DNA of 56,666 nt from Deltaproteobacteria bacterium (GCA_031278395.1 JAITKM010000013.1:1-56666); one strand, 5' to 3'. Shown: positions 405-53,590, counted from the first letter of the stretch. Notes: generated by a model from the letters alone, not told the origin. Numbers and translations are program-made.

Positions 405-545
405 TCTGTTTTTTTTCTGGTACAGGGTTACTTTTATTTTTATACTTTTTTAGAAATTACAAAATAATTTAGAGAGTTACGTTTGTTTAATGTATGAAAA
501 AACTAATAAATAAAGTAACCCCATACCAGCGAAACCAGCGAAATA
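405..545. mobile_element. MITE-like palindromic repeat element, copy A
   Basis: The left terminus TTTTTTCTGGTACAGGGTTACTTTT (about 411-436) and the right terminus AAAGTAACCCCATACCAG (512-529) are inverted copies of each other. They flank an AT-rich core of about 75 bp. The right terminus is followed by the tandem ACCAGCGAA ACCAGCGAA. The core is about 80% identical to the core at 51663-51740. Confidence 0.8.
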
Positions 546-664
546 TGATGATTGCTAAAAATATACATTTTGATCGAGATTATAATCGTTAAAAATTTGT
601 CGCTTTTTATATTGACACAAATTCCATAGTAGTCGCTGCACTAGGTGCCAGGAATTATCGTTTT

Positions 665-3358
665 TTAACCTATAATATTTCCTTCCATTATTGAAATATA
701 ACTTCTTAAAGTCGCATTATTTGCCAAGAGATTTTTTTGTTTTTCTTTAACTTCTTGTACAATATTAGCTGGAGCTTTTTGTAAATAATTTTCATTACTC
801 AATGTTTTGTTACAAGTTAATAAAGCTTTTTCATTATCGGCTATTTTCTTAGTCAACATTTTGCTAATTTCTATAATATCAACAATTCCTTCATCCAATT
901 TTATATAAGCGAAACCTACATCAAGTGCTATTGGAATATATCCTGCCAATTGTTTTTTAGGACTCGTTAAGCTTTCTGTAATAAAGGCATTAGCTGTATT
1001 ATTTAAAACAAACTCTAATTCTTGATATTTTTTCAAATTGTCTCTAGCTGAATAGATAGAAATATTTAATTTTGTTTTATATTCTATGCCAAACAAATGT
1101 CTCATTTCTCGTACTTTTGTAACCAAATTCATATTAAGCAACATCGCAGAACAAATATCATTTGCACTAGGCACATCTACTTCTATCCAATTAGTATTAA
1201 GCAAAAATTGTTCGTGCTTAACATCCATAGTTTGTTGTAGTAATTGCCATAACTTTTCCGTCACATACGGTATATACAAGCTAAACATTTTTAATATCTG
1301 CACCATCACATAAACCGCCGTCATCAAAGCTTGTTGCTTGTCTACTAAGTTTTTGGAATGTAAACGCGGTTTAATTATTTCTATAAACCAATCGCAAAAA
1401 TCTCCCCGAAAGAATGCAGATAACTCAACAAAAGCTTGCGATATATTATAGGCTTGCAAATAATTATCATGATTAATAACGCATTGTTTGAGCTTAGCAA
1501 TGATCCATTTGTCTATTGCATTGTCTGATGATTTAAATTTGTCAAAATCAACTAATTTTGTTTCAGCAGTTAGATTAGTTAAGATAAAACGACAAGAATT
1601 CCATAATTTTGTAACTAAAGCTCTCCCTTCTTTATAATCATTATTGCTAATTTTGCAGTCTTGTCTTCCCAATGGATATTTACTAATCACTGTAGCTCTA
1701 ACTGCATCCACTCCAAATTCTTTAAATAAAATTAATGGATCTTGATAATTACCAAGACTTTTAGAAAGCTTACGTCCTTGTTCGTCACGAATTAGTCCAT
1801 GCAAAACCAAAGTTTTAAAAGGTATATTGTCAGTAAATTCTAAAGCCATTACCATCATTCTTGTACACCAGAAGAATAAAATATCTCGACCAGAAAAAAG
1901 AGTTGTCGTCGGAAACCAAAAATCTAATTCTGGAGTTTTCTTTGACCAACCTAAGGTAGAAAAGGGCCACAAGGCAGATGAAAACCACGTATCCAGCACG
2001 TCTGTTTCTTGTCTTAACTTAGTGTGCCCACACTTACTACAAGCTTGTGGTGTATCAATTTCAGCCATGAGATTGTCACATTTTTCGCAGGTATAAACTG
2101 GAATTTGATGTCCCCAAACTAATTGCCTAGAAATGCACCAGTCTCGAATATTATCCACCCAATGAAAGAAATCATTACGTTCAGAATCTGGAATAATTTT
2201 AATTTTTTTTGCTTCAACAGTTAACTTTGCCCGCAAAGCTAGATCTCTCATTTTTAAAAACCACTGTTCTGAAATAAGCGGTTCTATTACGTTATGACAA
2301 CGTTCACACTTAGTAATGTTATTTACATAATTCTCGATTTTTACTAAAAACTTTTGTTGGACTAGATCGTCAACAATAACATTACGAGCCGTCATTATAT
2401 CTAAGCCAATATATTTGGCTGGTGCAGGCTCTATTATTTTTCCATCTTTATTTATAATCGAAATTATTGGGAGATTATGCCGTTTTCCTACTTCATAATC
2501 AGTAAAATCATGCGCTGGCGTTATTTTTACCGCACCAGTTCCAAAATCTAAAGCAACAAAGTTGTCTTTAATAATTGGAATAACCCTATTTGCAAGCGGC
2601 AAAAAACATTTAGTATATTTTAAAGTTTTATATCTTTCATCTTCTGGATTTATTGCTACTGCCACATCACCTAACATGGTTTCGGGACGAGTCGTAGCAA
2701 TGACAACTCCGTCGTCTTGAATATTCTCTTGTTCATCTACAAACGGATATTTGATATACCACAATAATCCACTGTTTTTTTCATGAATTAAATCTTCGTC
2801 AGCAAAAGCTGTTCCGCATCTTGAACACCAACTTACTATTCTCGAACCTTTATAAATCAACCCTTTATTAAAAAGTCTAACAAACGCAGTGCGAACAGCT
2901 AAAGACAAGCCTTCGTCTAATGTAAATCGCTCACGTTCCCAATCACAAGAGAAACCTAATTTTTTAAGCTGAGTTGTAATAATATTCTTGTGATTTAAGG
3001 CAAATTCCCAAATCTTATTTAATAAAGCTTCTCTGGATAGAGTTTCCGGATTTATGCCTTGTTTGTATAAAAATTTTTTAACTACATTCTGAGTAGAAAT
3101 TCCTGCATGATCTGTGCCAGGTATCCACACAGCTGAAAATCCACGCATTCTATGCCAACGCAGATAAGCATCTTGTATAACATTATCTAAGATGTGTCCC
3201 AGATGCAATGTTCCAGTCACATTCGGTGGTGGTATTACAATTGAAAAAGGTTGTTTATTCTTATCTATCTCTGCGTGAAAGACACGACTCTTTTCCCACT
3301 GCTCACTAATCTGAGCTTCAATCTCTTCATGATTAAAATGTATAGGTATTTCTTGCAT
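665..3358 (-). CDS. valS: Valine--tRNA ligase
   Basis: 897 aa. HIGH-type motif (PPPNVTGTLHLGHILD), KMSKS-type motif (KLSKSLGN), tRNA-synthetase class I editing and anticodon-binding regions, and a C-terminal coiled coil typical of ValRS. Confidence 0.93.
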   Translation of the reverse strand: MQEIPIHFNHEEIEAQISEQWEKSRVFHAEIDKNKQPFSIVIPPPNVTGTLHLGHILDNVIQDAYLRWHRMRGFSAVWIPGTDHAGISTQNVVKKFLYKQGINPETLSREALLNKIWEFALNHKNIITTQLKKLGFSCDWERERFTLDEGLSLAVRTAFVRLFNKGLIYKGSRIVSWCSRCGTAFADEDLIHEKNSGLLWYIKYPFVDEQENIQDDGVVIATTRPETMLGDVAVAINPEDERYKTLKYTKCFLPLANRVIPIIKDNFVALDFGTGAVKITPAHDFTDYEVGKRHNLPIISIINKDGKIIEPAPAKYIGLDIMTARNVIVDDLVQQKFLVKIENYVNNITKCERCHNVIEPLISEQWFLKMRDLALRAKLTVEAKKIKIIPDSERNDFFHWVDNIRDWCISRQLVWGHQIPVYTCEKCDNLMAEIDTPQACSKCGHTKLRQETDVLDTWFSSALWPFSTLGWSKKTPELDFWFPTTTLFSGRDILFFWCTRMMVMALEFTDNIPFKTLVLHGLIRDEQGRKLSKSLGNYQDPLILFKEFGVDAVRATVISKYPLGRQDCKISNNDYKEGRALVTKLWNSCRFILTNLTAETKLVDFDKFKSSDNAIDKWIIAKLKQCVINHDNYLQAYNISQAFVELSAFFRGDFCDWFIEIIKPRLHSKNLVDKQQALMTAVYVMVQILKMFSLYIPYVTEKLWQLLQQTMDVKHEQFLLNTNWIEVDVPSANDICSAMLLNMNLVTKVREMRHLFGIEYKTKLNISIYSARDNLKKYQELEFVLNNTANAFITESLTSPKKQLAGYIPIALDVGFAYIKLDEGIVDIIEISKMLTKKIADNEKALLTCNKTLSNENYLQKAPANIVQEVKEKQKNLLANNATLRSYISIMEGNIIG

Positions 3359-3405
3359 TACTATTTCCTTGCGTTTTATTCATTTTAAATTAACTAAGAT
3401 TAAAC

Positions 3406-3445
3406 AAAAAAATTTAACAAAGACATAACTTTGTTAAATTTTTTT
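3406..3445. promoter_or_regulatory. Perfect 17-bp inverted repeat (AAAAAAATTTAACAAAG-6nt-CTTTGTTAAATTTTTTT) about 48 bp upstream of the valS start
   Basis: Read directly from the sequence. On the valS sense strand the hairpin is followed by a U-rich run, so it is a candidate operator or attenuator. Confidence 0.35.
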
Positions 3446-3512
3446 GTAGCTTTAATGTGACAATTTGTGTCTTTTGAAATTCAAATATTTTTTTAAATTT
3501 TCATGATAATCA

Positions 3513-3905
3513 TCATTCAAAAATATCAAAAGCCTCCCAACCACTCAATCGGTACAAATTGGACAACGTAGAACATAAAATTAAACTTGAAGTCAAGACA
3601 TCAAACTTAAGAATTCTTTTAATATCGTTTTCATCTAAAATTTCCAGGAGCTCGTAAATATTTTCGATATTATCTTTATGAACTGCACAACTAACTTTTA
3701 GCAAAAGTTGCTTTTATTACTTCGTTCATTGCCAAACCATTAGTAAGTATCTTAGCAATTAAATTATTAGAACGAATTTCTTTTACAAAATCTACAAGAT
3801 CTGTTCCACATAACAGTTCACCTTCTAATAAATGTATTTCCGAATTGGTAACATTAAGCTGTTTTAATAAATTTAAACCTTTTTCTCCAAAATTGATTAA
3901 CCTGA
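3513..3905 (-). pseudogene. Possible degraded gene remnant (two out-of-frame ORF pieces, no ATG start)
   Basis: An upstream fragment (~3691-3905) translates as ...LINFGEKGLNLLKQLNVTNSEIHLLEGELLCGTDLVDFVKEIRSNNLIAKILTNGLAMNEVIKATFAKS and stops at 3691-3693. In a different frame it abuts the TTG-initiated 63-aa ORF 3513..3704. Neither piece has a recognisable family. Confidence 0.25.
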
Positions 3906-4037
3906 AACGACTTTTTCAACTATTATTATTTATATTCTAGAATTTAGAATTTCTAGAATATCGAGAAAGAATTTATAAATACGACGGCGATCGTCTTGCT
4001 TTGTGCAAATTCATGTCCATTCGTTGGGCAGAAATAG

Positions 4038-4595
4038 TTAAAAATATGTATCTACTGCAAATTTAAACTGGTCAATAAATAATTTTTTAAAATATTGAGT
4101 GTTATTTTGTTCATAAAATAATAAAATTGCCTTTTTGTATTCGTCAACATTTGTATTGCGATATGATAACGGACAATAGTCGTTTGCAAGCAAGACTGCA
4201 TTGGCGAGAATTCGAGATGTTCTTTTATTACCATCTTCAAAGGGGTGAATGTAAGAAATCATTAAAACGCAAATTAATGCTTTTTCTATTGGATTTTCAG
4301 TTTGATTAACAAGCGCTACTAATTGTTCCAGCGCTTCTTTGATTTGTTTGGCATTATCCAGCGGACGATATTTCATGCCAATAATTCCAACTTTGTGATT
4401 ACGAATTCCAGACGTGATATCTAGGTCATTTGTTAGTAATTTGTGCAAATCTTCGATGTGACGTATTGTTGCCCGCGATGTTTTATCAAAATGTTCGGAT
4501 ACAAAATTCTGAATTTCTTGTCGCGAAACAGATTTTTTTAACTGTAAAAAATCTAAAATCGCTTGTTGACGTTCATTTAATTTATTTTGTGCCAT
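4038..4595 (-). CDS. Fic/Doc-family protein with N-terminal winged-HTH
   Basis: 185 aa. Fic active-site motif HPFEDGNKRTSR, a variant of HxFx(D/E)GNGRxxR. The N-terminal ~60 aa look like a DNA-binding wHTH (ERQQAILDFLQLKKSVSRQEIQNFV). Confidence 0.75.
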   Translation of the reverse strand: MAQNKLNERQQAILDFLQLKKSVSRQEIQNFVSEHFDKTSRATIRHIEDLHKLLTNDLDITSGIRNHKVGIIGMKYRPLDNAKQIKEALEQLVALVNQTENPIEKALICVLMISYIHPFEDGNKRTSRILANAVLLANDYCPLSYRNTNVDEYKKAILLFYEQNNTQYFKKLFIDQFKFAVDTYF

Positions 4596-4609
4596 TATAT
4601 TTTTCTTTG

Positions 4610-4655
4610 TTGCGTCTCATTTTAAGTTGGTTTCCGTATCAAAAATGAGACGCAA
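4610..4655. promoter_or_regulatory. Perfect 14-bp inverted repeat TTGCGTCTCATTTT-18nt-AAAATGAGACGCAA immediately 5' of the Fic start codon
   Basis: Read directly. The left arm starts about 15 bp upstream of the Fic ATG (minus strand). It is a candidate autoregulatory operator for the HTH-Fic protein, or a 5'-UTR hairpin. Confidence 0.45.
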
Positions 4656-4966
4656 ATATTTTATTTTCTGGCTATATAGTTATTTTGTTTTTAAAATAAT
4701 TAATATTTCTAATATGTTATATTTTATGCTTTTTAAAAGTAGCCTACGGACAGGCTGTCGTATTATTAGGTACCAAAAATTATGAAAACTATACAACAAA
4801 TAAGAATCAGAATATTAAATTATATTATTGGCGTGTGTAAAATAAAGGTCAAATGTCAGAAATTGATTTTGTGCTGAATTGTGGAAAAAAATTTAAAGAA
4901 TTGAAGTTAAAAGTGGCAAGATTTTCTCAAGATTGATGATTTAGAAATACTATTTAAATAGAAATT

Positions 4967-5179
4967 ATGGTTAATAAAATAATTTATCTTACTTTTGTTC
5001 TTTTCTTTTATTGCGCTTGTGTTCGCGTCAAGGATGACTATATCAATAACAATTTGGTCTACCATAATGTAACTTTAAAAGCTGCAGTGGAGAGGATTGA
5101 AGAGTATAAACTAGCAACTCAAAAGGAGCTTGAGGAAATAAAGTTACTTAGTTCTCAGGTAAAGGAAGACTTAAAATAA
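4967..5179 (+). CDS. Small exported protein (hypothetical)
   Basis: 70 aa with a hydrophobic N-terminus ending in ...FFYCAC, then a charged helical region. It lies 3 bp upstream of the next ORF, which suggests coupling. Confidence 0.35.
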   Translation: MVNKIIYLTFVLFFYCACVRVKDDYINNNLVYHNVTLKAAVERIEEYKLATQKELEEIKLLSSQVKEDLK

Positions 5180-5182
5180 TCT

Positions 5183-5965: not shown

Positions 5966-6122
5966 AACAAATACAAGGTAGAGGCGCCCCTACAATATTT
6001 GACTATAGTAGTGTGAAATATTTTTGTTAAAAGTAACGATAGAGGCTGGGTAGGGATTTGTAGTTACTCTTTTTATTGGAGCTAAAGGGTTACAATAATA
6101 TAACGAACAACGAAAGTTATTT

Positions 6123-6368
6123 ATGAATATTCAAAAACTAAGCGCAGTAGCGCTGAAATATGATGATTCTATAGATGATGCACCTCTGATTGCCGCGCAA
6201 GGGCAATTATTAGTTGCCAAAGAAATGAAAGCTATTGCCAGACGTTACGGAATTCCAATTTGCACAAATGAAGAGCTAACAGAAAATTTGCAACAGTTGC
6301 AATGTAATCAAAATATTCCACAATCCCTATACTTAGAAGTCGCCAAAATTTTCGCCCCCAAAAAATAA
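6123..6368 (+). CDS. FlhB/YscU C-terminal-domain-like small protein (FhlB domain protein)
   Basis: 81 aa. The sequence KLSAVALKYDDSIDDAPLIAAQGQLLVAKEMKAIARRYGIPICTNEEL...LYLEVAKIFA matches the conserved post-NPTH C-terminal domain of type-III export switch proteins. It begins just after the position where NPTH would lie. Confidence 0.65.
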   Translation: MNIQKLSAVALKYDDSIDDAPLIAAQGQLLVAKEMKAIARRYGIPICTNEELTENLQQLQCNQNIPQSLYLEVAKIFAPKK

Positions 6369-6415
6369 GTCCTGAAAGTTTAACACCCAATAAAAACAGC
6401 CAGATCAAGGAATTT

Positions 6416-6460: not shown

Positions 6461-6505
6461 ATTAATTATCTTTTATCCAATTATTTTTTTAAAAGGTGAA
6501 CGAAT

Positions 6506-6745: not shown

Positions 6746-6765
6746 GGGATTACTTCCTCCGTATA

Positions 6766-9453: not shown

Positions 9454-9934
9454 TGTTGCTCTCTTTTATTTTGTTGCCAAGTTTAACCTAAAAAATACGG
9501 CGAACGTGTATCATAATTTAAGGTGATATAAAAATATCTATAAATTAATGTAGTTATAAAGTGAAAAAAATAGCATGATTAAGCTATGTTAGCAAGCTTT
9601 TGGCTTATATATGCAACTGCTAATTTATTCTGAGTAACCAATTACCGCCCCGCATTTTTTTATTCGCAAAGCAAATAAAAAATATCTTTCAGTCTATTCC
9701 AGGCGGGGAGCTTTAAATCATCCTGACTATTTGTAGTTTTGTCTTTTAATATTCGTCTCCAGATTATCTATAGTTTTTATTTTTTGAGATAAAACCACAA
9801 ATTATCGTGATGTAAATCTTCTTTGTATTTTTTGTCTAACAAAAATGCAGGGTGGTAAATTGTTTAGAGAACGAACGGTTACTTTATATTCGCAACTTGC
9901 AAGATATAAATTTATATGTTAGCGAAAGTCCCCA

Positions 9935-17499: not shown

Positions 17500-17688
17500 C
17501 CTTTTCCTAGTGCATGGTTCATGTAGTAATAAAACAGGAAATACAAACAAAATAACCCTGCCCCAAGTGGTTAGGGTGAGCCCTGCACTTTCTGTTTTTT
17601 TCTCTTTCGGTTTTTTCTGGCACCACTATAGATGATAGCACAGCCAGGATTGGGCTGTGCTACACACAAAAAAAGTCGTCTCAACTTT

Positions 17689-23442: not shown

Positions 23443-23580
23443 CGATGCTGACCAATAGTATGTTTAACTAACGTCGTTAATATTAAAAAAGTATGGTAAA
23501 GTAGTCGCCGAACATACTTGTTTGGAATGGATAAAGCAACAAAATCACACTTCTGCTGCTGATCTATTCTGGTTGACTAT

Positions 23581-23760
23581 TTCTGGAGAAAAAAATAAAA
23601 AAATTCTGGAAATTCTGGTATGGGGTTACTTTATTTATTATCTTTTTTATAATTTGTTAAAACTACAATATATTGAATTTATTTGTTATTCTTTGAAAAA
23701 AAATTAAAAGTTTATATTTAAAAGTAACCCCATACCAGATGACCAGATGAATCCAGAGCT
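23581..23760. mobile_element. MITE-like palindromic repeat element, copy B
   Basis: Left arm TTCTGGA x3 then TGGTATGGGGTTACTTT (23617-23633). AT-rich core of about 85 bp. Right terminus AAAGTAACCCCATACCA (23721-23737), followed by ACCAGATG ACCAGATGA ATCCAGAG. Overlaps the spurious ORF 23522..23707. Confidence 0.8.
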
Positions 23761-23817
23761 ATTAACATCTTAAATTTATGTATTATTCTTTAGATTTGGT
23801 CTTTATGTGAAAGTATA

Positions 23818-23866
23818 TGAAATAACCCTGTACCAAAGAAAACCCCAAAGAAAACCAAAGAAAAAT
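23818..23866. repeat. Solo element terminus (AATAACCCTGTACCA) followed by 3x tandem CCAAAGAAAA(CC)
   Basis: Read directly: gaaataaccctgtaccaaagaaaaccccaaagaaaaccaaagaaaaa. Confidence 0.7.
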
Positions 23867-24104
23867 AAATCACAATTTTTTGAGGTATTTCCCTTGATTT
23901 TTAGTAAAAAATTCTATACTGAACTGCTGCTTAAATTTATTATATTTTAGTAGAAGTGCGTATTTGTTTCTCTGTTATAGAGTAATTTTAGTGATTTTAT
24001 AATAGGGAAACAAAATTCTTGAAAAAGGTTTTATGTTCCTTTGTTGAATTTCTAGTTTTCGCGGAAAACTTGTTTATTCAATAAATTTAGTTTTTGAAAA
24101 AGGA

Positions 24105-28330: not shown

Positions 28331-28352
28331 ATTTCTGGTATGGGGTTATTTC
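28331..28352. repeat. Solo element terminus (ATTTCTGGTATGGGGTTATTT)
   Basis: Read directly. It lies in the 141-bp gap between the SPFH gene and the upstream methyltransferase gene. Confidence 0.65.
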
Positions 28353-28401: not shown

Positions 28402-29853
28402 TCAGCTAGTTAAGGCAATTTCTTTGAAAAAGGCGAGAATATCTTCAATTTCATTGAGTGTAAGCTCAGGAGTTAATTTTTTAGAAATGTCCTGAAGGGA
28501 ATTTGTAGCATCCAGAAGTTTGGCGACTTTAATTTCATTTGGGGTAAGTTTAACATATTCATGACGATAATTAGTTATCCAGTCTTGAGTTTCAAGCTGA
28601 ATTTTTACGTAAGGCGAGATAGGTTTCTTATCTGTCGAGCAGCTTAGATACAGATCTAATAGTTCTTGTTTAAATAATTTAAAAAGCTCTTCTTTAACTG
28701 AAGTTTCGAGAGTCATTCCTACTAATGGAGCTAGGCTTTTTATTTCTCTAGGGTTAGGCCATTCTTGAATTACAAATTTTAAAATTTCTTGAGTTACTTT
28801 ATTGCGGATGCTAACTTTTACACCTTGTGCGTCGTAAAAATATGTTTCACCAAAATTGTCCGACTCAAAAACAAGCTTGGAGCTAAGATAGCAATCTTCA
28901 ATTATGTCTAAATTTGGTTTACGATTTATTAGGGCTTCATTTTTACAAAAAAGAGTTCCGCGAAATGCAGTAGCTTGACAGAAATCCGCCTCTTGCTCAC
29001 AAGTTTCAATAAAATCATCGCTGTAAACTTCGGGATTCTTATTAAGATCTAAGTAGTTAATTCTGTTTAATTTACTATCGCCTAGGTATTTTAAACCGAA
29101 ACTTTTAATATGCTCAGTTAGTTCTTGAAAATAGAACGCTTGATTATGTTCTGCTAGAAGTTCGTAAAATATATAACCGTCACTTTGTTGCAGAATGTGA
29201 TTAATTTCAAAATTTAACCTTGCGGCTTGAAAGGGTAGGTGTTTGTTTTTAAAATTGTAATTTAAAAGAAAGTCACGAATTTCTTGAAGGTTTGTCTGGG
29301 TTGGAACAGATAAATTAGAAAATTTATTTTGTAGTTCATGTCTTAAGAAATTCCGAACTTCGAAGCCTGGTAGCACATTATAGCTAATGTAACAAACGCC
29401 GTTTGAGGCAAGTTGAGACGAGCAGATTTGCAAAATACTATCTTGGGTTGCAGTTGGAACCCAAGAGAAAACTCCATGAACTAGAATATAGTCAAAATCC
29501 TTCTGAGTTTGGCTTTGCCAGAGATGTTGTTCAGTCTGATTAAGATCTTGAGCAATAAATTTAATATTTTTTAGGTTTAAGCTTTGGACATGCTGGTTAG
29601 CAATAGCAATTTGTTCTTTAGAAATATCAACCCCGATAAATGAGCTATTTGGATTACTTAAAGCAACTGGAATTAAGTTACTTCCTGTTCCGCAGCCAAG
29701 CTCTAAAATTACTGCATTTTGACTTAAGAGCTTCGCTTTTAAACCAAATAATCTGGCAATTAAACACAACCTGTCAGGGTGTTTATCGTAGCTAGGTTTT
29801 GATATGTAGTTTAATTTGTTATCTATTTCTGGTATGGGGTTACTTTTAGACAT
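28402..29853 (-). CDS. Class I SAM-dependent methyltransferase with C-terminal extension
   Basis: 483 aa. Motif I VILELGCGTGSNLIPVA and the post-I acidic residue (GVDIS). About 300 aa of C-terminal unknown domain. The first 30 nt of the CDS (ATGTCTAAAAGTAACCCCATACCAGAAATA) are a copy of the repeat-element terminus. Confidence 0.7.
   Translation of the reverse strand: MSKSNPIPEIDNKLNYISKPSYDKHPDRLCLIARLFGLKAKLLSQNAVILELGCGTGSNLIPVALSNPNSSFIGVDISKEQIAIANQHVQSLNLKNIKFIAQDLNQTEQHLWQSQTQKDFDYILVHGVFSWVPTATQDSILQICSSQLASNGVCYISYNVLPGFEVRNFLRHELQNKFSNLSVPTQTNLQEIRDFLLNYNFKNKHLPFQAARLNFEINHILQQSDGYIFYELLAEHNQAFYFQELTEHIKSFGLKYLGDSKLNRINYLDLNKNPEVYSDDFIETCEQEADFCQATAFRGTLFCKNEALINRKPNLDIIEDCYLSSKLVFESDNFGETYFYDAQGVKVSIRNKVTQEILKFVIQEWPNPREIKSLAPLVGMTLETSVKEELFKLFKQELLDLYLSCSTDKKPISPYVKIQLETQDWITNYRHEYVKLTPNEIKVAKLLDATNSLQDISKKLTPELTLNEIEDILAFFKEIALTS
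29826..29847. repeat. Element terminus (TATTTCTGGTATGGGGTTACTTTT) overlapping the 5' end of the methyltransferase CDS
   Basis: Read directly. Its reverse complement encodes residues 2-10 (SKSNPIPEI) of the 28402..29853 protein. Confidence 0.7.
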
Positions 29854-29910: not shown

Positions 29911-29978
29911 ACTAACTTACCTCCCTCCCTGCATTTTTTACTCCGCAAGCAAAAATGCAGGGAGGGAGGTAAGTTAGT
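29911..29978. promoter_or_regulatory. Perfect 28-bp inverted repeat with 12-nt loop (ACTAACTTACCTCCCTCCCTGCATTTTT-TACTCCGCAAGC-AAAAATGCAGGGAGGGAGGTAAGTTAGT)
   Basis: Read directly. It has a GC-rich core in an AT-rich divergent intergenic region, 58 bp from the minus-strand methyltransferase start and 140 bp from the plus-strand methyltransferase-GT8 start. Confidence 0.6.
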
Positions 29979-40446: not shown

Positions 40447-40612
40447 TTTTCTGGTTTTTCTAGTTATTTTTTGGGGTATGGGGTATGAGGTTGTTTTATT
40501 TTTCTTATTTTTTAGTACCTTGAATATCTGCAACATAGTTAATTTATTTTGTATTTTCTTAAAAGTTAAAAAATAAAAGTAACCCGGTACCAAAAAAAGC
40601 CCAAATAAAAAC
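40447..40612. mobile_element. MITE-like palindromic repeat element, copy C
   Basis: TTTTCTGG...GGGGTATGGGGTATGAGGTTGTTTT (40473-40497), AT-rich core, then AAAGTAACCCGGTACCA (40576-40592) followed by an A-run. Overlaps the spurious ORF 40426..40614. Confidence 0.75.
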
Positions 40613-42002: not shown

Positions 42003-42517
42003 TGAAAAAAAATCTTAGTCAAGAAGATATATTCAACTCGCGCAATACGCAGCACCATTGACGGGCAACGACAAAAACCGCGCTCTGATAAAAGTACAGG
42101 GTTTGTTCGTATGTTTATCCTATCCAGCGAGGTTGATAAGGATGTTGCTGCAAAGCACGACCAGAATAATTTTGCTATTATGAAGATTCTTCGTAAATAT
42201 TCACCTGCGATAGTGAGATCATATTATCGTATCTGCTTTCCACATTTTTTCTGGTTGATGATGCCACTATAGCAGTAAAAACATGGTAGTTCAGGCTAGT
42301 TAGGTGTTCTTAAAAAAAGTTTGTCTTTTTATATAAATTTTGCTAGGAAAGCGAAAATTTTTAAGTCGTCATAACAATGACTTTAAATTTTAGGTTATTT
42401 TAGGTTTTTTGTTCTTAATCCTTGGGGTTGTATTTTTTAGTCCTAGCTTTAATTACCCTTGCATTGGTTATTTTTCGGTTGTCATTTGAATGGACAGCCA
42501 CGCTATTTTTTTAAACT

Positions 42518-44884: not shown

Positions 44885-47623
44885 ATGGCAAAACTTAGAA
44901 TTCACGAACTTGCTAAAGAATTAGGACTTGAAAATAAGGACCTCTTAGAGCTTTGTGCAAAGATTGGCTTGAGTGGTAAGACCTCTCATTCTAATACTCT
45001 GACGGATGATGAAGCAGATAAATTGCGACGGGCTGTTTTGCGCCAAGCTGTTGGTGGTAGTGTGGGTATAGCTAAAGACGTAGAGCGTGAAGATGGTAAA
45101 TTCACAGAAAGGCGCCTTGGTGGCAATATTATTAGACGTAGAAAAAGAGAAGATACGCCAGAAGATAAGGAAGAAAAAATTGATCTCAATGCCGAAGCTC
45201 TCCAGAATGAGCCTCAATTTGCGGTTTCTGTGCCAAATTTTGCGGATGAAAAAGCCATACGCGATCAAGCGTTAGCCTCGGCGGACGCGTTGTTTGAAGA
45301 AGAAACCCCACCTACTGTTGAGCCAGAAAGTGCAAAAGTAGAGCCAACGTGGTCAGAATTAGATTTATTTCCAACAGAACCAGTAGCAACGGATAATGAT
45401 GCGGTCGTTGCTATGCCGGAAGTTCAAGAGTTACCACAATTATCTTCAGAGGAATTATTAGCCAAAGAACGCACTAATAAACTTAATGCGATTCGTGAAA
45501 GACACGGTGTTAAAGCGCCTAATGTTTTGGGAACCATTGTTTTACCAACAGTTCCTGGTTTTGAGAAAAAAGAGAGTGAAGAAATAACTAAAAAAGAGAA
45601 GCTCAAATCCAAAACTAGTGCCGCCAAAAACAAAGATAAAAAAGGGCTCAAGGGTAAAGACTTTGATGAGCTTGACGAAACACCAAAATTTCAAAAGAAA
45701 ACTAAGCGTAAGGTGCTTGAAAAAGACGATTTGGTTGATATGGATGACGAGTCTAGTTGGCGCACTGCTAGATTAAGAGAGAGAAATAAAAAGAAACAAG
45801 AAAAGGTCAAAACGGCGGAGCAGCCTTTGGCTAATGAAATGCGTGCCTCGAAGAAAGTTATTAAGATGCAAAATGAAATTATTGTTAGCGAGCTGGCAAA
45901 AAGCATGCAGGTAAAGTCGGGTGAGATTATTAAAAAATTAATGTCACTTGGGGTTTTGGCGAGTATTAACCAACTAATTGATTTTGAAACAGCTGAACTA
46001 ATTGCTAGCGAATATGGCTATAGCATAACTAAAGTGGGGGATGAGGAAGACGAGTTAGGAATTTTAGCTGAGTTAAAGCAGTTAGATGCAGAGGAAAATT
46101 TAATCCTCAGACCGCCAGTAGTTACAATTATGGGGCATGTTGACCATGGTAAAACAACATTATTGGACGCCATTCGTAATTCATCTGTGACTGCAAGCGA
46201 GGCTGGTGGAATTACGCAACATATTGGAGCTTACAAGGTAACAACTAAATCTGGTGGGCAGGTAACATTTATCGATACGCCAGGGCATGCCGCATTTACT
46301 GAAATGCGTGGACGTGGGGCAAAAGTTACGGATATTGTCGTGTTAGTTGTGGCGGCTGACGACGGTATTATGCCACAAACAATTGAGGCAATTAATCATG
46401 CTAAAGCGGCAAGCGTGCCGATTATTGTGGCGATTAATAAGATAGACAAGCCCGGCGCAAATATTGAAAAAACTAAACAACAGCTTACCGAGTATGAACT
46501 AGTTCCAGAAGATTGGGGCGGACAAACCATTATTTGTCCGGTTTCTGCAAAAAGTAAGGAAGGATTGGATAATTTGCTTGAAAACTTAGCCTTGCAAGCT
46601 GAAATTTTGGAGTTAAAAGCTAATCCAAACCGTTCGGCAATTGGAACAGTCATCGAATCTAAAGTTGATAAAGGACGTGGTCCGGTTACTACAATTCTAG
46701 TGCAGAATGGGACTTTGGAAAAAGGCGATGCATTTATTGCAGGCATAACTTGGGGAAAGGTGCGGGCGATGAGTTCATATGATGGGAAAAGTATTACTGC
46801 TGCTACGCCAAGTATGCCGGTTGAAATTTTGGGAGCTGAATCTGCGCCGTTAGCTGGTGAAGAATTTTTAGTGATTAAGTCCGAAGCTGCTGCGCGCCGG
46901 ATTGCTGAAATTAGGCAAAGTCGTGCCAGACTTAAAGATTTAGCCCACAAAAGCGGTGGTGTTGGCGCGCCGCTGACTTTGGATTATTTTGCTGAGATTA
47001 CTGGTAATGCAGATAAGAAAGAATTGAATTTAATTATTAAAGCCGATGTTCAAGGCTCAGTTGAAGCTGTTTCGCAGGCTTTAGAGAGGCTGACAAATAA
47101 TGAAGTTACTGTAAGAGTTTTGCATAAAGCAGTCGGAGCAGTAAATGAAAATGATATTCAGTTAGCGCTGGCTTCCAATGCCATATTAATTGCCTTTAAT
47201 ATTCGGGCAGATGCACGAGCTACAGAACTGGCGGAAAAGTCTGGAGTAGAAATTCGGTATTCAAGAATTATTTATGAATTAATCGAAAATATTGAAGCTG
47301 CTCTCAAGGGCTTTAAAGCTCCGGTGTTTAAAGAAAATATTTTAGGTCGAGTGGAAGTTCGGCAGACTTTTAAAGTTCCAAAGATTGGGATTATTGCCGG
47401 GTGTTATATAACGAGTGGTATGGTTAAACGTAACTCGCTATTACGATTGCTGCGAGATAATGTTGTTGTGTTTGAAGGGAAGATGGCGAGTTTAAGAAGA
47501 GCTAAAGATGATGTGAAGGAAGTTCAGGCAGGGTATGAATGCGGTATAGGTATTGAGGGGTATCATGATTTTAAAGAGGGTGACGTTTTAGAAGTTTATG
47601 TCATGGAGCAGGTCGAGGTCTAA
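44885..47623 (+). CDS. infB: Translation initiation factor IF-2
   Basis: 912 aa. Charged low-complexity N-terminal region. G domain [22 protein letters not shown]-terminal beta-barrels. Confidence 0.95.
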
Positions 47624-47626
47624 TTT

Positions 47627-48019
47627 ATGTTTCGTAAAGAAAGAGTTAGTGAAGTTTTGTTAGGTTTTTTAGCGCAAGCAGTGCGTGAACTTGAAGATGC
47701 GCGTTTGATGTTGGTTACAATTACAGACGTGCGGGTATCGTCTGATTTAAAGTATGCTCAAGTTTTTTGGTCAATGCCGATTTGGAATACTGTTAAAAAC
47801 GGTAGCCAAGAAGTTAGAGTTTTAAGCTTTCCAAATCCAGTTCAACAAGCGCAACTTAACAAAATTTTTGATGAATATAAAAATAACCTCAAAAGCCAAA
47901 TTGCTAAGGAGTTAAATCTACGTTATACGCCGGAACTGTATTTTGAATATGATTTTTCTGAAGAACAAGGGACTAAGATTGATAGGACGATTGATAATAT
48001 TTTGAATAATCAAAGATAG
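47627..48019 (+). CDS. rbfA: Ribosome-binding factor A
   Basis: 130 aa. RbfA-like KH fold sequence (LVTITDVRVSSDLKYAQVFWS). Conserved position after infB. Confidence 0.8.
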   Translation: MFRKERVSEVLLGFLAQAVRELEDARLMLVTITDVRVSSDLKYAQVFWSMPIWNTVKNGSQEVRVLSFPNPVQQAQLNKIFDEYKNNLKSQIAKELNLRYTPELYFEYDFSEEQGTKIDRTIDNILNNQR

Positions 48020-48021
48020 GT

Positions 48022-49005
48022 ATGACATTACAAGAAATAGCTGCTGCAATTAAACAAGCTAAGAATGTGCTAGCTTTAACTCATGTTAGTCCAGATCCAG
48101 ATGCAATTGGTTCAAGTGGAGCCTTAGTTTTAGCTCTAAATTCAATCGGGATAAAGGCTAAGTTATTGCTTGAAGCTGAACCAGAATATAAAATTAGAGA
48201 ATTAGCCAAGACTATTCCGATTATTTATGAACTGCAGAAGGCAGAGAGTTTTGATTTAGTTGTTGGCTTAGATACCTCAACTAAAAAAAGATTAGCAGGC
48301 TATCAAGATGGTTTAGTAAAAGCAGATGGCAAAATTATCAATATTGATCATCATGTAAGTTCTGAAATTAGTTGGGCAACTATGAATTTTGTTTCAGATA
48401 AATATCCGGCTGCTAGCGCGATTGTATTTGAAATTTTAAATTTACTAGAGGTTAAAATTGACTCTGTGATGGCTAATTTGTTGTTAGCAGGCTTAATGGA
48501 TGATACCGGTTCTTTTAGATTTAGTAATACTAATGAAATTGCGTTTAATACTGCTTTGGGATTGTTACGGTGTGGAGCAAATTCAGAGTTAGTTTCTAAT
48601 AATCTTTATTATTCTATTCCGCAAAGAATTTTAAACTTAACAAGTATCTGTTTATCAGATATGAGGTATTTTGCTGAGGGACGTGGCTCGTTAATTTTTT
48701 TAACGCGGGAACTTTTAGAGGAGCTAGGAGCGCAAGATGGTGATACCGATGTTTTGCCGGATATTGGGCGTTCTGCCGCTGGTGTTATTGTGTCTGTTAT
48801 TATTAGACCTGGTATGCGAGAAAAAGGTAAGTGGAAGATTAGCTTGCGTTCTAAGGAGCGTCGGATCGATGTGAATAAAATAGCGGCGAAGTTTGGTGGT
48901 GGTGGACATATTCAAGCTTCTGCTTTTGTTTATCAGGGGAATGAAATTGCAAGGATAGAGTCAGCTTTACTGGATGAAATTACGAGGTGGTTAGATTTAT
49001 TGTAA
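48022..49005 (+). CDS. nrnA: DHH/DHHA1 phosphoesterase (NrnA-like oligoribonuclease/pAp phosphatase)
   Basis: 327 aa. DHH motifs (HVSPDPDAIGS; NIDHH) and DHHA1 GGGGH. Confidence 0.7.
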   Translation: MTLQEIAAAIKQAKNVLALTHVSPDPDAIGSSGALVLALNSIGIKAKLLLEAEPEYKIRELAKTIPIIYELQKAESFDLVVGLDTSTKKRLAGYQDGLVKADGKIINIDHHVSSEISWATMNFVSDKYPAASAIVFEILNLLEVKIDSVMANLLLAGLMDDTGSFRFSNTNEIAFNTALGLLRCGANSELVSNNLYYSIPQRILNLTSICLSDMRYFAEGRGSLIFLTRELLEELGAQDGDTDVLPDIGRSAAGVIVSVIIRPGMREKGKWKISLRSKERRIDVNKIAAKFGGGGHIQASAFVYQGNEIARIESALLDEITRWLDLL

Positions 49006-49008
49006 GTT

Positions 49009-49476
49009 ATGTATCTTTGGACTACTCAGACAAAAATTGGAAAAATTTCCATTGCTGAAAATAGTGGAAAGATTACCAACCTTTATTTTACTAATGATGT
49101 GAAGCCGGAGCGAGATTATATACTGCGGCAAACTCCACTACTTCAAACCGCGTTTCAGCAATTAAACGCTTATTTGTCTGGTGATTTAAAAAACTTTTCA
49201 GTTCCGCTAAATCCGCAAGGCACTAAATTTTTGCAGCAGGTTTGGAAAGCTTTGCAAAGAATTTGTTATGGACAAACTGTAAGTTATCGGGATATTGCTT
49301 TAAAAGTAGGCAATTCGAAAGCTGCGCGAGCTGTGGGACTGGCGAACAATAGAAATCCGATTCCTGTCTTTATTCCATGTCATCGTGTGCTTGGTAGTGA
49401 TGGTAGTTTGGTTGGTTATCGTGGTGGAGTTGAGTTAAAGGCGCAACTTTTAGAAATAGAAAGAATAAGGTTATAA
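49009..49476 (+). CDS. ogt: Methylated-DNA--protein-cysteine methyltransferase
   Basis: 155 aa. Active-site PCHRV motif (IPCHRVLGSDGSLVGYRGG) and N-terminal domain. Confidence 0.85.
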   Translation: MYLWTTQTKIGKISIAENSGKITNLYFTNDVKPERDYILRQTPLLQTAFQQLNAYLSGDLKNFSVPLNPQGTKFLQQVWKALQRICYGQTVSYRDIALKVGNSKAARAVGLANNRNPIPVFIPCHRVLGSDGSLVGYRGGVELKAQLLEIERIRL

Positions 49477-49519
49477 GAGAAGTAAGTTCTTATTAATGGT
49501 GTAGATTTTTTTTTAGATT

Positions 49520-49745
49520 TTTTTTGTTTTTCTTTGGTGCAGGGTTCTTTTTTAGCTTTTTGTATATAAAAAGCTATTAAAAGTTGTATAGTTTTTAGAT
49601 AGTAAAATTAAATAGTTATCTTTTAAAAAGGTAACACTATAACCAAGAAAGCAAGCAAAAATTTGTTTCATACGTGGATTATCATAAAAAGATTATAAAG
49701 TAACCCTGCACCAGAAATAACCAGAAATACCAGAAATAACTGCAG
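49520..49745. mobile_element. MITE-like palindromic repeat element, copy D (longer core)
   Basis: TTTCTTTGGTGCAGGGTTCTTTT (49531-49552), a core of about 145 bp, then AAAGTAACCCTGCACCA (49698-49713) followed by ACCAGAAATA x3. Confidence 0.7.
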
Positions 49746-49876
49746 TGGTATCTCGAAAATCAGGAATGAGTTAATTCTGTAAAATCCGGCGATTATCAGA
49801 AGTATTATAAGAAAACAATATGCCGGACGCTAACCATTGCGGTTTTGTTAACACCTAGGCGGTCGGAAGGAGAATT

Positions 49877-50224
49877 ATGGCAAATTATATAGAAAACCGA
49901 CCTTGGGGCAGTTTTGAAGTTTTGCTGGATAATGTAAATTACAAAGTAAAAATTCTGACTGTCCGTCCGCAAAAACGTTTGAGCCTGCAGTCACACCGGC
50001 GCCGCAGTGAAAACTGGGTGGTTGTGGTCGGACAGGCTTATGTGGAGATAGACGATGAGTTTTGGATTTTGGACAAAGGTCAACATGTGTTTATACCGAT
50101 CGGCGCGAAGCACCGCCTGGAGAATAAAGGCGAGGTTGACCTCGTAGTTGTGGAGACGCAGACCGGCGATTATTTTGGCGAGGATGATATTGTGCGCTAT
50201 GCTGATGATTTTCAGAGAACTTAA
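49877..50224 (+). CDS. Cupin-domain protein (mannose-6-phosphate isomerase type-II C-terminal-like)
   Basis: 115 aa. ENRPWGSFEVL...QSHRRRSENWVVVVGQAYVEID...GAKHRLENKG cupin motifs. By eye the gene is visibly GC-richer than its neighbours. Confidence 0.65.
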   Translation: MANYIENRPWGSFEVLLDNVNYKVKILTVRPQKRLSLQSHRRRSENWVVVVGQAYVEIDDEFWILDKGQHVFIPIGAKHRLENKGEVDLVVVETQTGDYFGEDDIVRYADDFQRT

Positions 50225-50522
50225 TCGATGAGCCAGCTGGGGATTTTTTCTGGAACGGCTTATATTTTTTTGGGTCTACGCCGTGCCGCTGTTTTCTTTC
50301 TTTGGTGCAGCCCCTGCCCCTCTGCCCCAGCAGAAAAACAAAATCAAGTAATATGCGAAAAGAGACGATAGGCAATGGCGCGAAAAAGAAATTTTTTAAG
50401 ATATTTGTTCCCATCGAATATAAGTATAATGACGGATTTTAATCAACTAAAAGGTAAGCAGGTAGTAACAGTAGTGGATTATATCGGCAATTAAAACCGC
50501 CGTTTGAATTAAGCTGCACTTC

Positions 50523-51509
50523 TTAAGCTTCGCCGCGAATTATCTTATAGGTTTCTTCAATTTGTTTCTTTTCTTCTTTTTGCCGCGATAATTTTTTATA
50601 AATATTAGCCTGTTCAATGTTGCCTTGCTCTTTATATAAAACAGATAATTCATAGCATGCACCAGCAGTCCATTTTTGTTCATGACATAAAATCTTAAAG
50701 ATAGCCTCTGCTTCTTTTATTTTATTAAGTTTCATTTTAGTACGTCCAAGATTACCATAGGCATTAATATCTCCAAGTTCATGTCCTTTAGCAAACAACA
50801 GTTCTGCCAAGTCATAATTTTTACGTATAAACTCAATTGTGCCAAGGTTATTGTGTGCTCCAGCATGATTTAAACTCACTGCTCGTCCATATAAAACATG
50901 AGCATTTATATTATCATAAAGTAGCTTCTCATAAACTAACCCGGCATGAAAACAACCTGCACCGTTGTTTAAATCACATGCCTTTTCATACCAGTTAATT
51001 GCTTGGTAATAATCTTTCTTATTATAACGATAATCATTCGCAACCAGCATACATGAGTTACTAGTGATATTGCCTCTCTGGCATGTCTTTTTAGCAATTT
51101 CAATGTTAACTGGAGCTAATGAAAATTGTGCATTGAGCCTTGGTAGTAAAAGAAATATTAATATTAGCAGCAGTAAAATTATAGCCTGCCGAGGATGCAG
51201 CTTATCTGGCTGAAATTTACTTTTCCATTGTTTAACAGCATAGTTAGTTTCTATATCTATCTTGTCACTTAGTTGTTTGTTTTTTTCTGAAAATATAGTC
51301 TTTTGAGAATTTGTTTTTAAAACTAAATCGTTAGTTAAAAAATTATTATTTCGTGAGTATGAATCATTGGTATTAGAAGTCTCTTGAGGTGGTTTAATAT
51401 TTTTTAATAACAGATACATTACCCAGATTAATATTCCCAGTAGTATTACTATTCTTAGGGCAGTCTGAGGATCTTCTATTAAAAATTGGATTGAATTAGC
51501 TATTGGCAT
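50523..51509 (-). CDS. Sel1-like repeat (SLR/TPR-like) membrane-anchored protein
   Basis: 328 aa. TM helix near residue 100. The C-terminal half has Sel1-like repeats with spaced Cys/Gly/Ala (AINWYEKACDLNNGAGCFHAGLVY...NHAGAHNNLG...). Confidence 0.6.
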   Translation of the reverse strand: MPIANSIQFLIEDPQTALRIVILLGILIWVMYLLLKNIKPPQETSNTNDSYSRNNNFLTNDLVLKTNSQKTIFSEKNKQLSDKIDIETNYAVKQWKSKFQPDKLHPRQAIILLLLILIFLLLPRLNAQFSLAPVNIEIAKKTCQRGNITSNSCMLVANDYRYNKKDYYQAINWYEKACDLNNGAGCFHAGLVYEKLLYDNINAHVLYGRAVSLNHAGAHNNLGTIEFIRKNYDLAELLFAKGHELGDINAYGNLGRTKMKLNKIKEAEAIFKILCHEQKWTAGACYELSVLYKEQGNIEQANIYKKLSRQKEEKKQIEETYKIIRGEA

Positions 51510-51587
51510 AGATTTTTATTTTACTTTTGCAGGAACAAAAAAGTATAATCGAAACACTAACATTAAAACTTTAATATTATTAATATT

Positions 51588-51800
51588 GAATGTTGGGTAA
51601 CAAAATTAATACAATATCTAATCTAAATTAAAGTAACCCCATACCAACACTACCAACACTAACTTTTTACTTTTTTAAAAATTACAAAATAATTTAGAAT
51701 CTTATATTTATTTAAATCATGAAAAAACTAATAAACAAAGCACCATAGAAAACAACCCTACACCATAGCACCATAGAAACACATGTTCACCATAGAAAAT
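51588..51800. mobile_element. MITE-like repeat element, copy E (rearranged: terminus-core-degenerate terminus)
   Basis: AAAGTAACCCCATACCA (51630-51646) plus ACCAACACT x2. The core at 51663-51740 is about 80% identical to the copy A core. The right end is degenerate (AAAGCACCATAGAAAACAACCCTACACCATAGCACCATAGAAA), with CACCATAGAAA repeated 3 times. Confidence 0.7.
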
Positions 51801-51983
51801 AATCAAACTTGCTCTATTTTTTTTTTTTTGATAAAGCTACTCGTTTTTTTATCCTATTTATGGAAGTAGTTTTAGATTTAGTTGTGTTGTTTGTTGCGTG
51901 TTGTAATGGTGATTTAACAACATTTTATTTATAATTTGTTGCCGAATATAAATTTAGTTCGGTTTTTTATTGGAGTTTTTTTT

Positions 51984-52703
51984 ATGAAAAAAAGTAATTT
52001 AATTTTATTAACATTTGCAGTATCGCTGTTTGCTGTCATACCCCATACTTTCGCAGAGGGAAATGAAGTAACAGTTTCTCCTTACGTTTCAACAAAACTA
52101 TCATTTGGCTGGACAAAAGGTCATAACGCTGTTGGTGATTTATCGTCAGATGATGGTTATGAAACTTCTTTTGATACTAATACTGATACTGGAGTTGGTA
52201 CAAAAATAGCCGTTGGTGTTTCAACAGCTGTCCCTGCTATTCATGGCGCAATCAGAACAGAATTAGAATTTGGTTTAAATTCAGATTACAAAGATAAAAA
52301 TGTAGATACTAGCTATGTTGATGATGGATATCCGTCATTTACTGTTGAGAGTAAAACGTTTTTATTCAATGTTTATTATGATTTTACCAATTGTTCAAAA
52401 TTTACTCCATACATCGGAGCTGGTTTGGGTTTAGCTCATACAACTTTGGATATGAATTATTTTGGTGATGACGGTGGTAATGATTGGTATGCTGGCGGAA
52501 GTAAAACGAATAATAAATTTGCTTGGCAGGTAGGAACTGGTGTTGCTTATAACATAACTGACAAAACTGCATTAGATCTTGGATATAGATTTACTGATCT
52601 TGGTGAAATTAGCGCAGATGCAGACCGAAACAGTAATCCAGGTGCTGTTAAAGCAGATTTAAAATCACATGAAATCTTACTTGGGCTTAGATATACTTTC
52701 TAA
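51984..52703 (+). CDS. Outer-membrane beta-barrel protein (OmpA-like/OMP_b-brl porin family)
   Basis: Most likely start is MKKSNLILLTFAVSLFAVIPHTFA (signal peptide). There are alternating amphipathic beta-strands and a C-terminal ...LGLRYTF aromatic terminus. The ORF-track start at 51936 is probably too early. Confidence 0.75.
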   Translation: MKKSNLILLTFAVSLFAVIPHTFAEGNEVTVSPYVSTKLSFGWTKGHNAVGDLSSDDGYETSFDTNTDTGVGTKIAVGVSTAVPAIHGAIRTELEFGLNSDYKDKNVDTSYVDDGYPSFTVESKTFLFNVYYDFTNCSKFTPYIGAGLGLAHTTLDMNYFGDDGGNDWYAGGSKTNNKFAWQVGTGVAYNITDKTALDLGYRFTDLGEISADADRNSNPGAVKADLKSHEILLGLRYTF

Positions 52704-52798
52704 TTCTTAAGATTGTGATGAAATCACAAAGTTTTTGCCGAAATATTTTTAGCGGCAGAACTTTTAAAAAAATTCTTATAGAATTCTAATTTGTTTTA

Positions 52799-52830
52799 AG
52801 TCGGTGATAATTGTTACCGACTTTTTTTTC
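52799..52830 (+). terminator. Candidate intrinsic terminator downstream of the OMP gene
   Basis: GTCGGTGATAATTGTTACCGAC imperfect hairpin, followed by a T8 run. Confidence 0.55.
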
Positions 52831-52839
52831 TCTCCTCCT

Positions 52840-53121
52840 CCTGACCTCCTCCTTCCTCCTGGTACAGGGTTACTTTCATTTTATATTTCTTGATGACACT
52901 TTTAAAAAATACCAAATAAATCTAATATATTAATCAAGATACCTAACTAAAAATATGGGTAATACCAGAAAGACCAGAAAAGTAACCTTATACCAGAAAG
53001 AAAATTAGTGGTCAGTGGTTAGCACAAGAGTGGTTAGTGGTTAGTTTACATGAGAACCAGAAAGAAAATATTAAACAGAAATCTAGTGTTAGACCAGAAC
53101 CCTATACCAGAAAGAAAAAAA
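52840..53121. mobile_element. MITE-like element copy F plus cluster of solo termini and microsatellites
   Basis: CCTCCT-rich run, then TGGTACAGGGTTACTTTC (52860-52877), core, then AAAAGTAACCTTATACCA (52978-52995) flanked by ACCAGAAAG repeats. GTGGTTA is repeated 3-4 times at 53007-53043. A further terminus AGAACCCTATACCAGAAAG lies at 53096-53114. Confidence 0.7.
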
Positions 53122-53532
53122 AATTCTTGACTTGGCGAAACCTTTACTCTCGCCCCCAGACCCACCAAAACCTCGCTATGCCCTACATAACGATGTAATA
53201 ACTTAACCGGTAAATTCCAGCGCTGTTGCAAAAAAAAATCCTTTGTAGCTCTGGCAAACACTTATACTTTTGTGAATCAATCACGGGTATAAGTAAAATA
53301 AATCTCTTAGTCCTTAGTTTTTAAATATTTTTTAGGTTGTTTATTATCGTTTTTAGAGCATAAAACGGTGGTCGTATTAGGAGAAAAATTGTGATTTGGC
53401 AATAAAAACTTTTAGTTTGCGCTTGAAACAAAGTATGAAACGGACCCAAAATTGTTATGATAATGGTTTCTTATGGTTTAAAATTATTTTTATTTTTTGA
53501 AACAGATAATAAAACTACATCAAACTTAATTC

Positions 53533-53549
53533 AAAAGAACCCTGTACCA
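53533..53549. repeat. Solo element terminus (AAAAGAACCCTGTACCA + A-run) at the base-composition boundary
   Basis: Read directly. The GC-rich segment begins about 10-40 bp downstream. Confidence 0.65.
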
Positions 53550-53590
53550 AAAAAACTAACCTTTGCGAAACGTTACATTTGATCTTTGAT

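Follow-up and report, generated by a model that had tools for sequence, protein, structure and literature searches.

A contig of 56,666 nt from a Deltaproteobacteria bacterium (GCA_031278395.1, JAITKM010000013.1:1-56666), analyzed here over its whole length and referred to as the window, contains a dispersed family of small intergenic repeats, whose defining terminus is the 17-18-bp sequence 5'-(C)TGGTAYRGGGTTACTTT. The repeat family is real; its sequence appears to be undescribed and the kind of element is ordinary. In our estimate, the chances are about even that these are non-autonomous terminal inverted repeat (TIR) elements, resembling REPINs and MITEs (miniature transposable elements with inverted repeats), that are mobilized in trans by a TIRYT-type transposase encoded elsewhere.

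In a full unit, two termini that are inverted relative to each other enclose a non-coding core of ~25-145 nt, which is specific to the lineage. As single-stranded DNA, the unit can fold into a hairpin with the two termini forming the stem; according to this model, a transposase encoded elsewhere in the genome would recognize the termini and copy the units. We infer that the likeliest enzyme is a Y1/HUH transposase of the TIRYT type (TnpA_REP subclass 2.1); such an enzyme would work on single strands, and its insertions would have no target-site duplication. The partial tandem re-iterations of the outer terminus and its flank would follow from processing at the outer end. Solo termini and rearranged copies are decay products of the units.

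Termini, cores and an insertion in the window

A profile built from the copies (nhmmer) identifies 16 solid termini in the window and a few marginal ones besides, the chance expectation being ~0. In direct counts, the terminus given in the preliminary description of this DNA is far more frequent than chance predicts: TAYRGGGTTACTTT with at most one mismatch occurs 10 times against 0.10 expected, and the 18-mer CTGGTAYRGGGTTACTTT with at most three mismatches occurs 13 times against none in 5 shuffles. Intergenic DNA makes up 17% of the window and holds 15 of the 16 termini, while the remaining one overlaps the first codons of a methyltransferase gene, whose start it supplies, in agreement with the earlier statement that all copies lie between genes or at gene ends. 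The estimated probability of this restriction is P ~5e-13 when calculated per copy and ~2e-8 when each occupied intergenic region is taken as one event. Copies occur in divergent, convergent, and tandem intergenic regions, and neither their position nor their orientation relative to genes is fixed.

Four copies in the window (A, B, D, and F) are clean inverted pairs, C is a pair in which one arm has decayed, and E is rearranged; five further termini are solo (Table 1). Thus, of the six copies with inverted termini proposed originally, A, B, D, and F stand as described, whereas the left arm of C is badly decayed and the termini of E share one orientation. Similarly, five of the seven proposed solo termini were recovered (23819, 28335, 29829, 53093, and 53533), but those at 42091 (nhmmer E = 9) and 50303 (no match) were not. 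The units are 111-181 bp long with core loops of 75-145 nt, and their termini span 17-18 bp, extending up to ~35 bp between A and B. The base preceding TGG varies (C, T, or A), so that the unit ends in 5'-TG...CA-3'. The only open reading frame (ORF) within the units is a short one in A, which is not conserved in E.

Copies of the family descend from other copies, since the cores of A and E have 84% identity over 77 nt (~80% had been estimated), since two 116-nt copies lying 4.2 kb apart in a Bdellovibrionales metagenome-assembled genome (MAG; locus L028) are 100% identical, and since element subfamilies are common to the copies within other MAGs. The identity of the L028 copies therefore points to a recent duplication. 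The preliminary view of a small intergenic family with inverted termini holds in this respect as well, the units being gene-less and related by descent through their shared cores.

The termini pair with each other in single-strand DNA folds of A, B, and F and of three units from other genomes (L008, L056, and L075); a single terminus forms no internal hairpin in the folds, the cores are not palindromic themselves, and pairing is seen only between the two arms. The fold energies of A (z = -3.0 relative to shuffles), B (-4.8), L008 (-5.1), L056 (-2.2), and L075 (-5.5) stand out, while those of C (z = -0.7) and F (z = -1.1) do not. The pairing of termini, which the preliminary description had proposed to check, is therefore accompanied by an energy beyond that of shuffled sequences in A and B, but in C and F the energy stays within their range.

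One solo terminus has become part of a gene. The methyltransferase encoded at 28402-29853 (minus strand) has the N-terminus MSKSNPIPEIDNK, the first nine residues of which (MSKSNPIPE) derive from the terminus and adjoining element sequence. The terminus at 29829-29846, read on the minus strand, codes for residues 3-9 (KSNPIPE), and the start codon (29851-29853) belongs to the inner part of the element, next to the terminus. All five closest homologs of the methyltransferase lack the N-terminal extension and start 10-12 residues later. The orthologous divergent methyltransferase/glycosyltransferase locus L145 (71% amino-acid identity in the methyltransferase) retains a block of the promoter region and lacks a segment of ~150-190 nt in which the terminus is accompanied by an AT-rich stretch and a perfect palindrome of 28 bp. 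Because the extension is absent from five homologs and from the orthologous locus, this comparison shows at least one copy to be an insertion, which re-made the start of the methyltransferase gene. In the NrnA-cupin region of another relative (L121, 79% identity), the cupin gene directly follows nrnA, with neither ogt nor copy D present. Presence/absence differences between orthologous regions, for which the preliminary description had proposed to look, are thus seen at both loci.

Outer ends, TIRYT flanks and the terminus in other genomes

A search for target-site duplications of at least 3 nt gave none at the nine complete pairs compared, which come from four genomes, even with boundary shifts allowed. 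The outer end of the terminus, along with a few bases of flanking DNA, is repeated in tandem in the window (ACCAGCGAA, AAATTCTGG, ACCAGATG, ACCAGAAAT, TACCAACAC, and CACCATAG). Such short tandem arrays include 9 of the 16 outer ends versus 5.6% of intergenic bases (P = 4e-8). The same re-iteration, with units of 10-27 nt, is present in the GC-rich relatives L018, L028, L045, L056, L058, and L082. The original comparison with Correia- or RPE-like MITEs has to be revised, as the target-site duplication expected for them is missing at the nine pairs and the anatomy of REP/REPIN-like TIR repeats fits better. The architecture is MITE-like, but by its footprint the family is better classed with REPIN/TIR-repeat elements.

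TIRYTs are RAYT-like Y1 transposase genes flanked by inverted repeats that share GGGG[AT][CG]A[CG] (Di Nocera et al. 2013, PMC3733652). The same study describes that TIRs can give rise to dispersed families, whose members are single, dimeric, or clustered, and that REP clusters are re-iterated in tandem with variable flank lengths (PMC3733652). In a later classification, TIRYTs constitute TnpA_REP subclass 2.1 (Quentin et al. 2018, PMC6006769). For comparison, we took TIRYT genes from plasmids and from IMG/VR. The inverted repeats on either side of these genes have cores of the consensus type, such as GGGGTCAG, GGGGACAG, and TTACGGTGACAG, and the TIRs vary around the consensus, for instance, GGTGACAG and GGGGACGT. 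Of the 8 consensus positions, the core of the window terminus, GGGGTTAC, matches 7, having T at position 6, and its variant GGGGCTAC matches 6; the L129-type core TTACGGTGACAG has the prefix TACGG in common with the family terminus. Partial re-iteration of the outer end was observed at six TIRYT loci (L125, L127, L129, L137, L139, and L143; for instance, CCGTAATTC CGTAATTC and two units of TAGAATTACGGTGACA). We did not find this feature of TIRYT flanks stated explicitly in PMC3733652 or PMC6006769.

The window family therefore resembles TIR repeats and TIRtrons in its inverted termini with a G-rich core and in the lack of a target-site duplication at its copies. As in TIR repeats, its intergenic units are single, dimeric and inverted, or clustered (4-5 dimers, five solos, and one rearranged cluster), and, as at the flanks of TIRYT genes, the outer end and its flank recur in partial tandem copies. 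Unlike the published TIRs, which share an 8-mer only, its terminus is kept as a full 17-mer across distant lineages. With the REPIN/RAYT system (Bertels & Rainey 2011; Nunvar 2010) it shares the arrangement of two inverted short repeats with a spacer, capable of forming a long hairpin, the decay to singlets (the arms of C and E have decayed), the density in intergenic DNA, the tandem re-iteration with flanking DNA, and the presumed single-copy transposase acting in trans. Unlike a REP, an imperfect palindrome of 20-40 nt with a GTAG-type head, the single window terminus is not a palindrome and the window copies have no GTAG/GTGG head, a GTAGCCCCG variant being found in relatives; at 75-145 nt, the spacers in the window also exceed those of REPINs.

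The family is found beyond the lineage of the window. Species-representative genomes (596 Gb) were scanned, and the matches were mostly those expected by chance for a 17-mer. The same 17-mer, with CG at the pyrimidine-purine (YR) position (TGGTACGGGGTTACTTT), is multi-copy in single short loci of eight MAGs with 42-57% GC. The labels of motif-rich MAGs are Bdellovibrionota/Bdellovibrionales (five), "Proteobacteria bacterium AM_0240", and "Ca. Dadabacteria J135". The window organism is distant from them, its NrnA being 36% identical to that of a Bdellovibrionales MAG. The cores differ between the motif-bearing MAGs, from a 24-nt loop in L075 to ~57 nt in L008 and L056 and a ~190-nt unit in L059, and the termini are arranged as inverted pairs, as direct pairs with a spacing of 26-27 nt, or in arrays (direct ones in L057, L072, and L082). 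Retention of the 17-mer while the cores vary argues for recognition of the terminus by a protein. The preliminary description had not recognized the terminal sequence as a described family, and string searches of the literature with 13-mers likewise found no published description of the terminus; TGGTACGGGGTTACTTT did not occur in the literature searched, and nothing relevant was found on Bdellovibrio in combination with MITE, REPIN, or RAYT.

The ancestral form of the terminus is TGGTACGGGGTTACTTT. Its central CpG (TACGGGG in the GC-rich relatives) reads TG, CA, TA, or CC in 16 of 16 window copies (for instance, at 421-426 and 23619-23624), whereas the remaining positions, judged by eye, are far better conserved and CpG as a whole occurs in the window at 0.98 of expectation. 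Site-specific cytosine methylation or an altered master copy could account for this pattern. A metagenome scan with the paired pattern had a sole match, a long near-perfect palindrome of unrelated appearance with arms beginning CGGGTACAGGGTTACTCT in a human-gut contig of 60% GC (L122:734-850); its resemblance to the terminus may be coincidental or may reflect remote kinship in an otherwise unrelated organism of high GC.

Individual copies and their surroundings

The copies are listed in Table 1. The decayed left arm of copy C holds an internal duplication of TGGGGTA (x2.9, 40472-40497). In copy E, an oppositely oriented terminus takes the place of the left arm, and the right arm consists of arrayed partial units. 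In copy F, motif units with internal deletions (ACCAGAAAG) adjoin the right arm on its inner side.

Table 1. Copies, solo termini and outer-end arrays of the repeat family in the window
Feature	Position	Strand	Details
Copy A, complete inverted pair	417..529	.	left terminus 417-434 CTGGTACAGGGTTACTTT, right terminus 512-529 AAAGTAACCCCATACCAG; AT-rich 77-nt core
Outer-end tandem re-iteration of A plus flank	525..543	+	ACCAGCGAA x2.1 (Tandem Repeats Finder, TRF)
Possible decayed relic TTGGGGCAGGGTTATTTT, weak	17538..17564	-	intergenic; nhmmer E = 1
Copy B, complete pair	23601..23750	.	termini 23615-23632 and 23721-23738
Copy B outer-end re-iterations, both sides			AAATTCTGG x2 at 23601-23618; ACCAGATG x2.1 at 23734-23750
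Solo terminus	23819..23864	-	terminus 23819-23836 TTGGTACAGGGTTATTTC; array ACCAAAGAAA x3.1 at 23832-23864
Solo terminus CTGGTATGGGGTTATTTC	28335..28352	+	between SPFH-domain gene and methyltransferase gene
Solo terminus	29829..29853	+	terminus 29829-29846; fused to methyltransferase start
Copy C	40472..40593	.	right terminus 40576-40593 intact; left arm decayed (nhmmer E = 1.1)
Copy D, pair	49534..49740	.	termini 49534-49551 TTGGTGCAGGGTTCTTTT and 49697-49714; then array ACCAGAAAT(A) x3 at 49710-49740
Copy E, rearranged	51630..51776	-	terminus 51630-47 with TACCAACAC x2.2; core 51664-51740
Copy E second terminus, degenerate	51749-66	same orientation as first	with CACCATAG repeats (x2)
Copy F, pair	52859..52996	.	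termini 52859-52876 and 52979-52996
Solo terminus CTGGTATAGGGTTCTGGT	53093..53110	-	nhmmer E = 2e-4
Solo terminus TTGGTACAGGGTTCTTTT	53533..53550	-	nhmmer E = 3e-4

A different tandem repeat, with a 27-30-nt period, ~3 copies, 80% match, and a sequence unrelated to the terminus, lies just upstream of copy A (85-193). A perfect palindrome ACTAACTTACCTCCCTCCCTGCATTTTT with a 28-bp stem and a loop of 12 (29911-29978) adjoins the solo terminus at the methyltransferase start and is absent from L145. A related half-site, 74% complementary, occurs in another intergenic region (9841-9871), and this palindrome may represent another family of small repeats. A second, independent assembly of the window organism (L084, a contig of Logan SRR14710901 corresponding to window positions 47009-49636) ends inside copy D, consistent with the tendency of repeats to break short-read assemblies.

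Several other identities of the terminus were considered and rejected. Translated, the termini give KVTPYQ or SNPIPE, and ATGAAAAAACTAATAAA is common to A and E, but a stop after nine codons in E and non-synonymous variation at the YR position speak against small peptide genes. As a sigma-54 promoter (TGGCAC-N5-TTGC), the sequence has a spacing one base too short and AC rather than GC in the -12 element, and the paired copies converge. LexA and NtcA boxes, integron attC, dif, and parS do not fit in sequence or context. For a tRNA-like or known RNA, ARAGORN found 0 genes and Rfam 0 matches at the gathering threshold, with only noise at E up to 5. As for a cyanobacterial origin with STRR/HIP1 repeats, HIP1 occurs once, and a "Deltaproteobacteria" MAG is indicated both by the proteins and by the label at NCBI.

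The window is otherwise ordinary chromosomal DNA of ~35% GC with genes for ValRS, RecN, DnaB, AcrB, NusA/IF-2/RbfA, and similar proteins. The tetranucleotide GTAC is four-fold under-represented (27 observed, ~106 expected), GTACG occurs at 0.18 of expectation, and GATC and TCGA at ~0.58, which suggests avoidance driven by restriction-modification systems. Finally, the region 54000-56666 has 45.6% GC and is probably the edge of a different mobile element; it ends with a serine-recombinase (resolvase) gene (55863-56465, minus strand), which has a 44-nt tandem repeat at its start (56450-56536).

Competing explanations and implications

The units could also be classical MITEs, that is, deletion derivatives of a DDE-transposase insertion sequence (IS) with inverted ends TGGTACGGGGTTACTTT, moved by cut-and-paste or copy-and-paste, an origin that we consider unlikely but far from negligible. 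Like Correia/NEMIS in Neisseria, RPE in Rickettsia, Nezha in cyanobacteria, and RUP, the family is small (90-180 bp), non-coding, dispersed, and mostly intergenic, with terminal inverted repeats, here ending in 5'-TG...CA-3'. The identical copies in L028 speak for this origin too, and classical MITEs are sometimes fused to gene ends, as is the window copy at the methyltransferase start. Correia and RUP elements duplicate TA. In contrast to such elements, the nine complete pairs lack a target-site duplication of at least 3 nt, their terminal sequence is unrelated, no parent IS was detected, and outer-end arrays are present; partial tandem re-iteration is not a known footprint of DDE transposition. 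There is no transposase in the window, and the ORFs sampled beside copies in relatives encode PBP1, ORF6N/Rha-like, or unknown proteins rather than transposases. No IS bearing these ends was found in ~0.9 Mb of fetched loci, and no protein recurs among the motif-rich loci. BLAST with a GC-rich unit gave no match in plasmids, and viral contigs gave 34 single matches at about the chance rate, with no multi-copy locus.

The 17-mer is strongly conserved among genomes of 35-57% GC while the neighboring sequence varies, and inverted pairs are frequent, as in the uptake sequences of Neisseria; these features would also suit a site bound by a host protein for chromosome organization, DNA uptake, or global regulation and kept by selection rather than transposition. 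This we regard as quite improbable, since the homologous cores indicate duplication of whole units, the placement relative to genes is not fixed, 17.5 kb of the closest relatives are free of the site, and one lineage-specific insertion has changed a gene start; moreover, unlike uptake sequences, the copies avoid coding DNA except for the single gene-start fusion. Still less credible, and in our opinion very improbable, is a primary role at the RNA level, with the units serving as terminators or mRNA-stabilizing hairpins and the repeat family arising as a by-product. The termini can form a stem of 17-19 bp, and several copies lie just downstream of genes, namely those for ValRS, PepP, Ogt, and an outer-membrane protein. 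However, the canonical terminator of the latter gene (52798-52823) precedes copy F and is not formed by it, copies are also found in the divergent promoter regions 23443-24104 and 51510-51935, the loops in the window measure 75-145 nt, and the units have no match in Rfam. Furthermore, mere pairing would let the stem covary, yet its sequence is fixed across lineages.

Mobilization in trans by a TIRYT-type enzyme faces difficulties of its own. In the window, neither Pfam (44 of the 45 gene-length ORFs) nor phmmer (all six-frame ORFs) found a Y1/TIRYT gene, and phmmer searches with RayT and eight TIRYTs found no homolog in ~120 fetched loci (~0.9 Mb), 15 motif-rich ones included. In these loci, no TIRYT gene is flanked by the family terminus, unlike the situation in TIR repeats, and the link to the enzyme is therefore inferred. 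A TIRYT profile search produced >8000 matches, none of them traceable to a motif-bearing genome and, among the 120 matches listed, none with a Bdellovibrionota label. The core departs from the published consensus at one position (T for C/G), and the parallel in re-iteration comes from a handful of TIRYT loci judged by eye with no control of DDE-type IS ends. The closest sampled relatives (NrnA 68-79% and methyltransferase 71% identity) have no copy in 17.5 kb (L119-L121 and L145). The terminus could thus be conserved among distant lineages because an unknown element has spread horizontally, and not because of a partnership with TIRYTs. All these observations weigh against the TIRYT interpretation.

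A bolder, and rather doubtful, proposal is that the 17-mer marks an old partnership between a repeat and an enzyme, either a TIRYT-type Y1 transposase or another single-copy enzyme, with one recognition sequence kept almost without change across Bdellovibrionota-like lineages of 35-57% GC and the outer-end re-iterations being a direct molecular footprint of substrate processing by this enzyme class.

For annotation, these repeats matter in that they break assemblies, inflate intergenic regions, and have at least once re-made a gene start. If the link to TIRYTs fails, the family would be merely another undescribed small repeat family. If it holds, RAYT-like transposases, a large class with neither known targets nor a known mechanism, would acquire a well-defined and highly conserved substrate sequence, a visible footprint of activity in the partial tandem re-iteration of the outer end, and genomes for testing. 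Conservation of the terminus across distant lineages and the footprint at the outer ends are the observations most worth following. Were the old partnership true, TIRYTs, whose function is unknown, would gain a natural substrate and a testable cleavage site near TGGTA/CGGGG.

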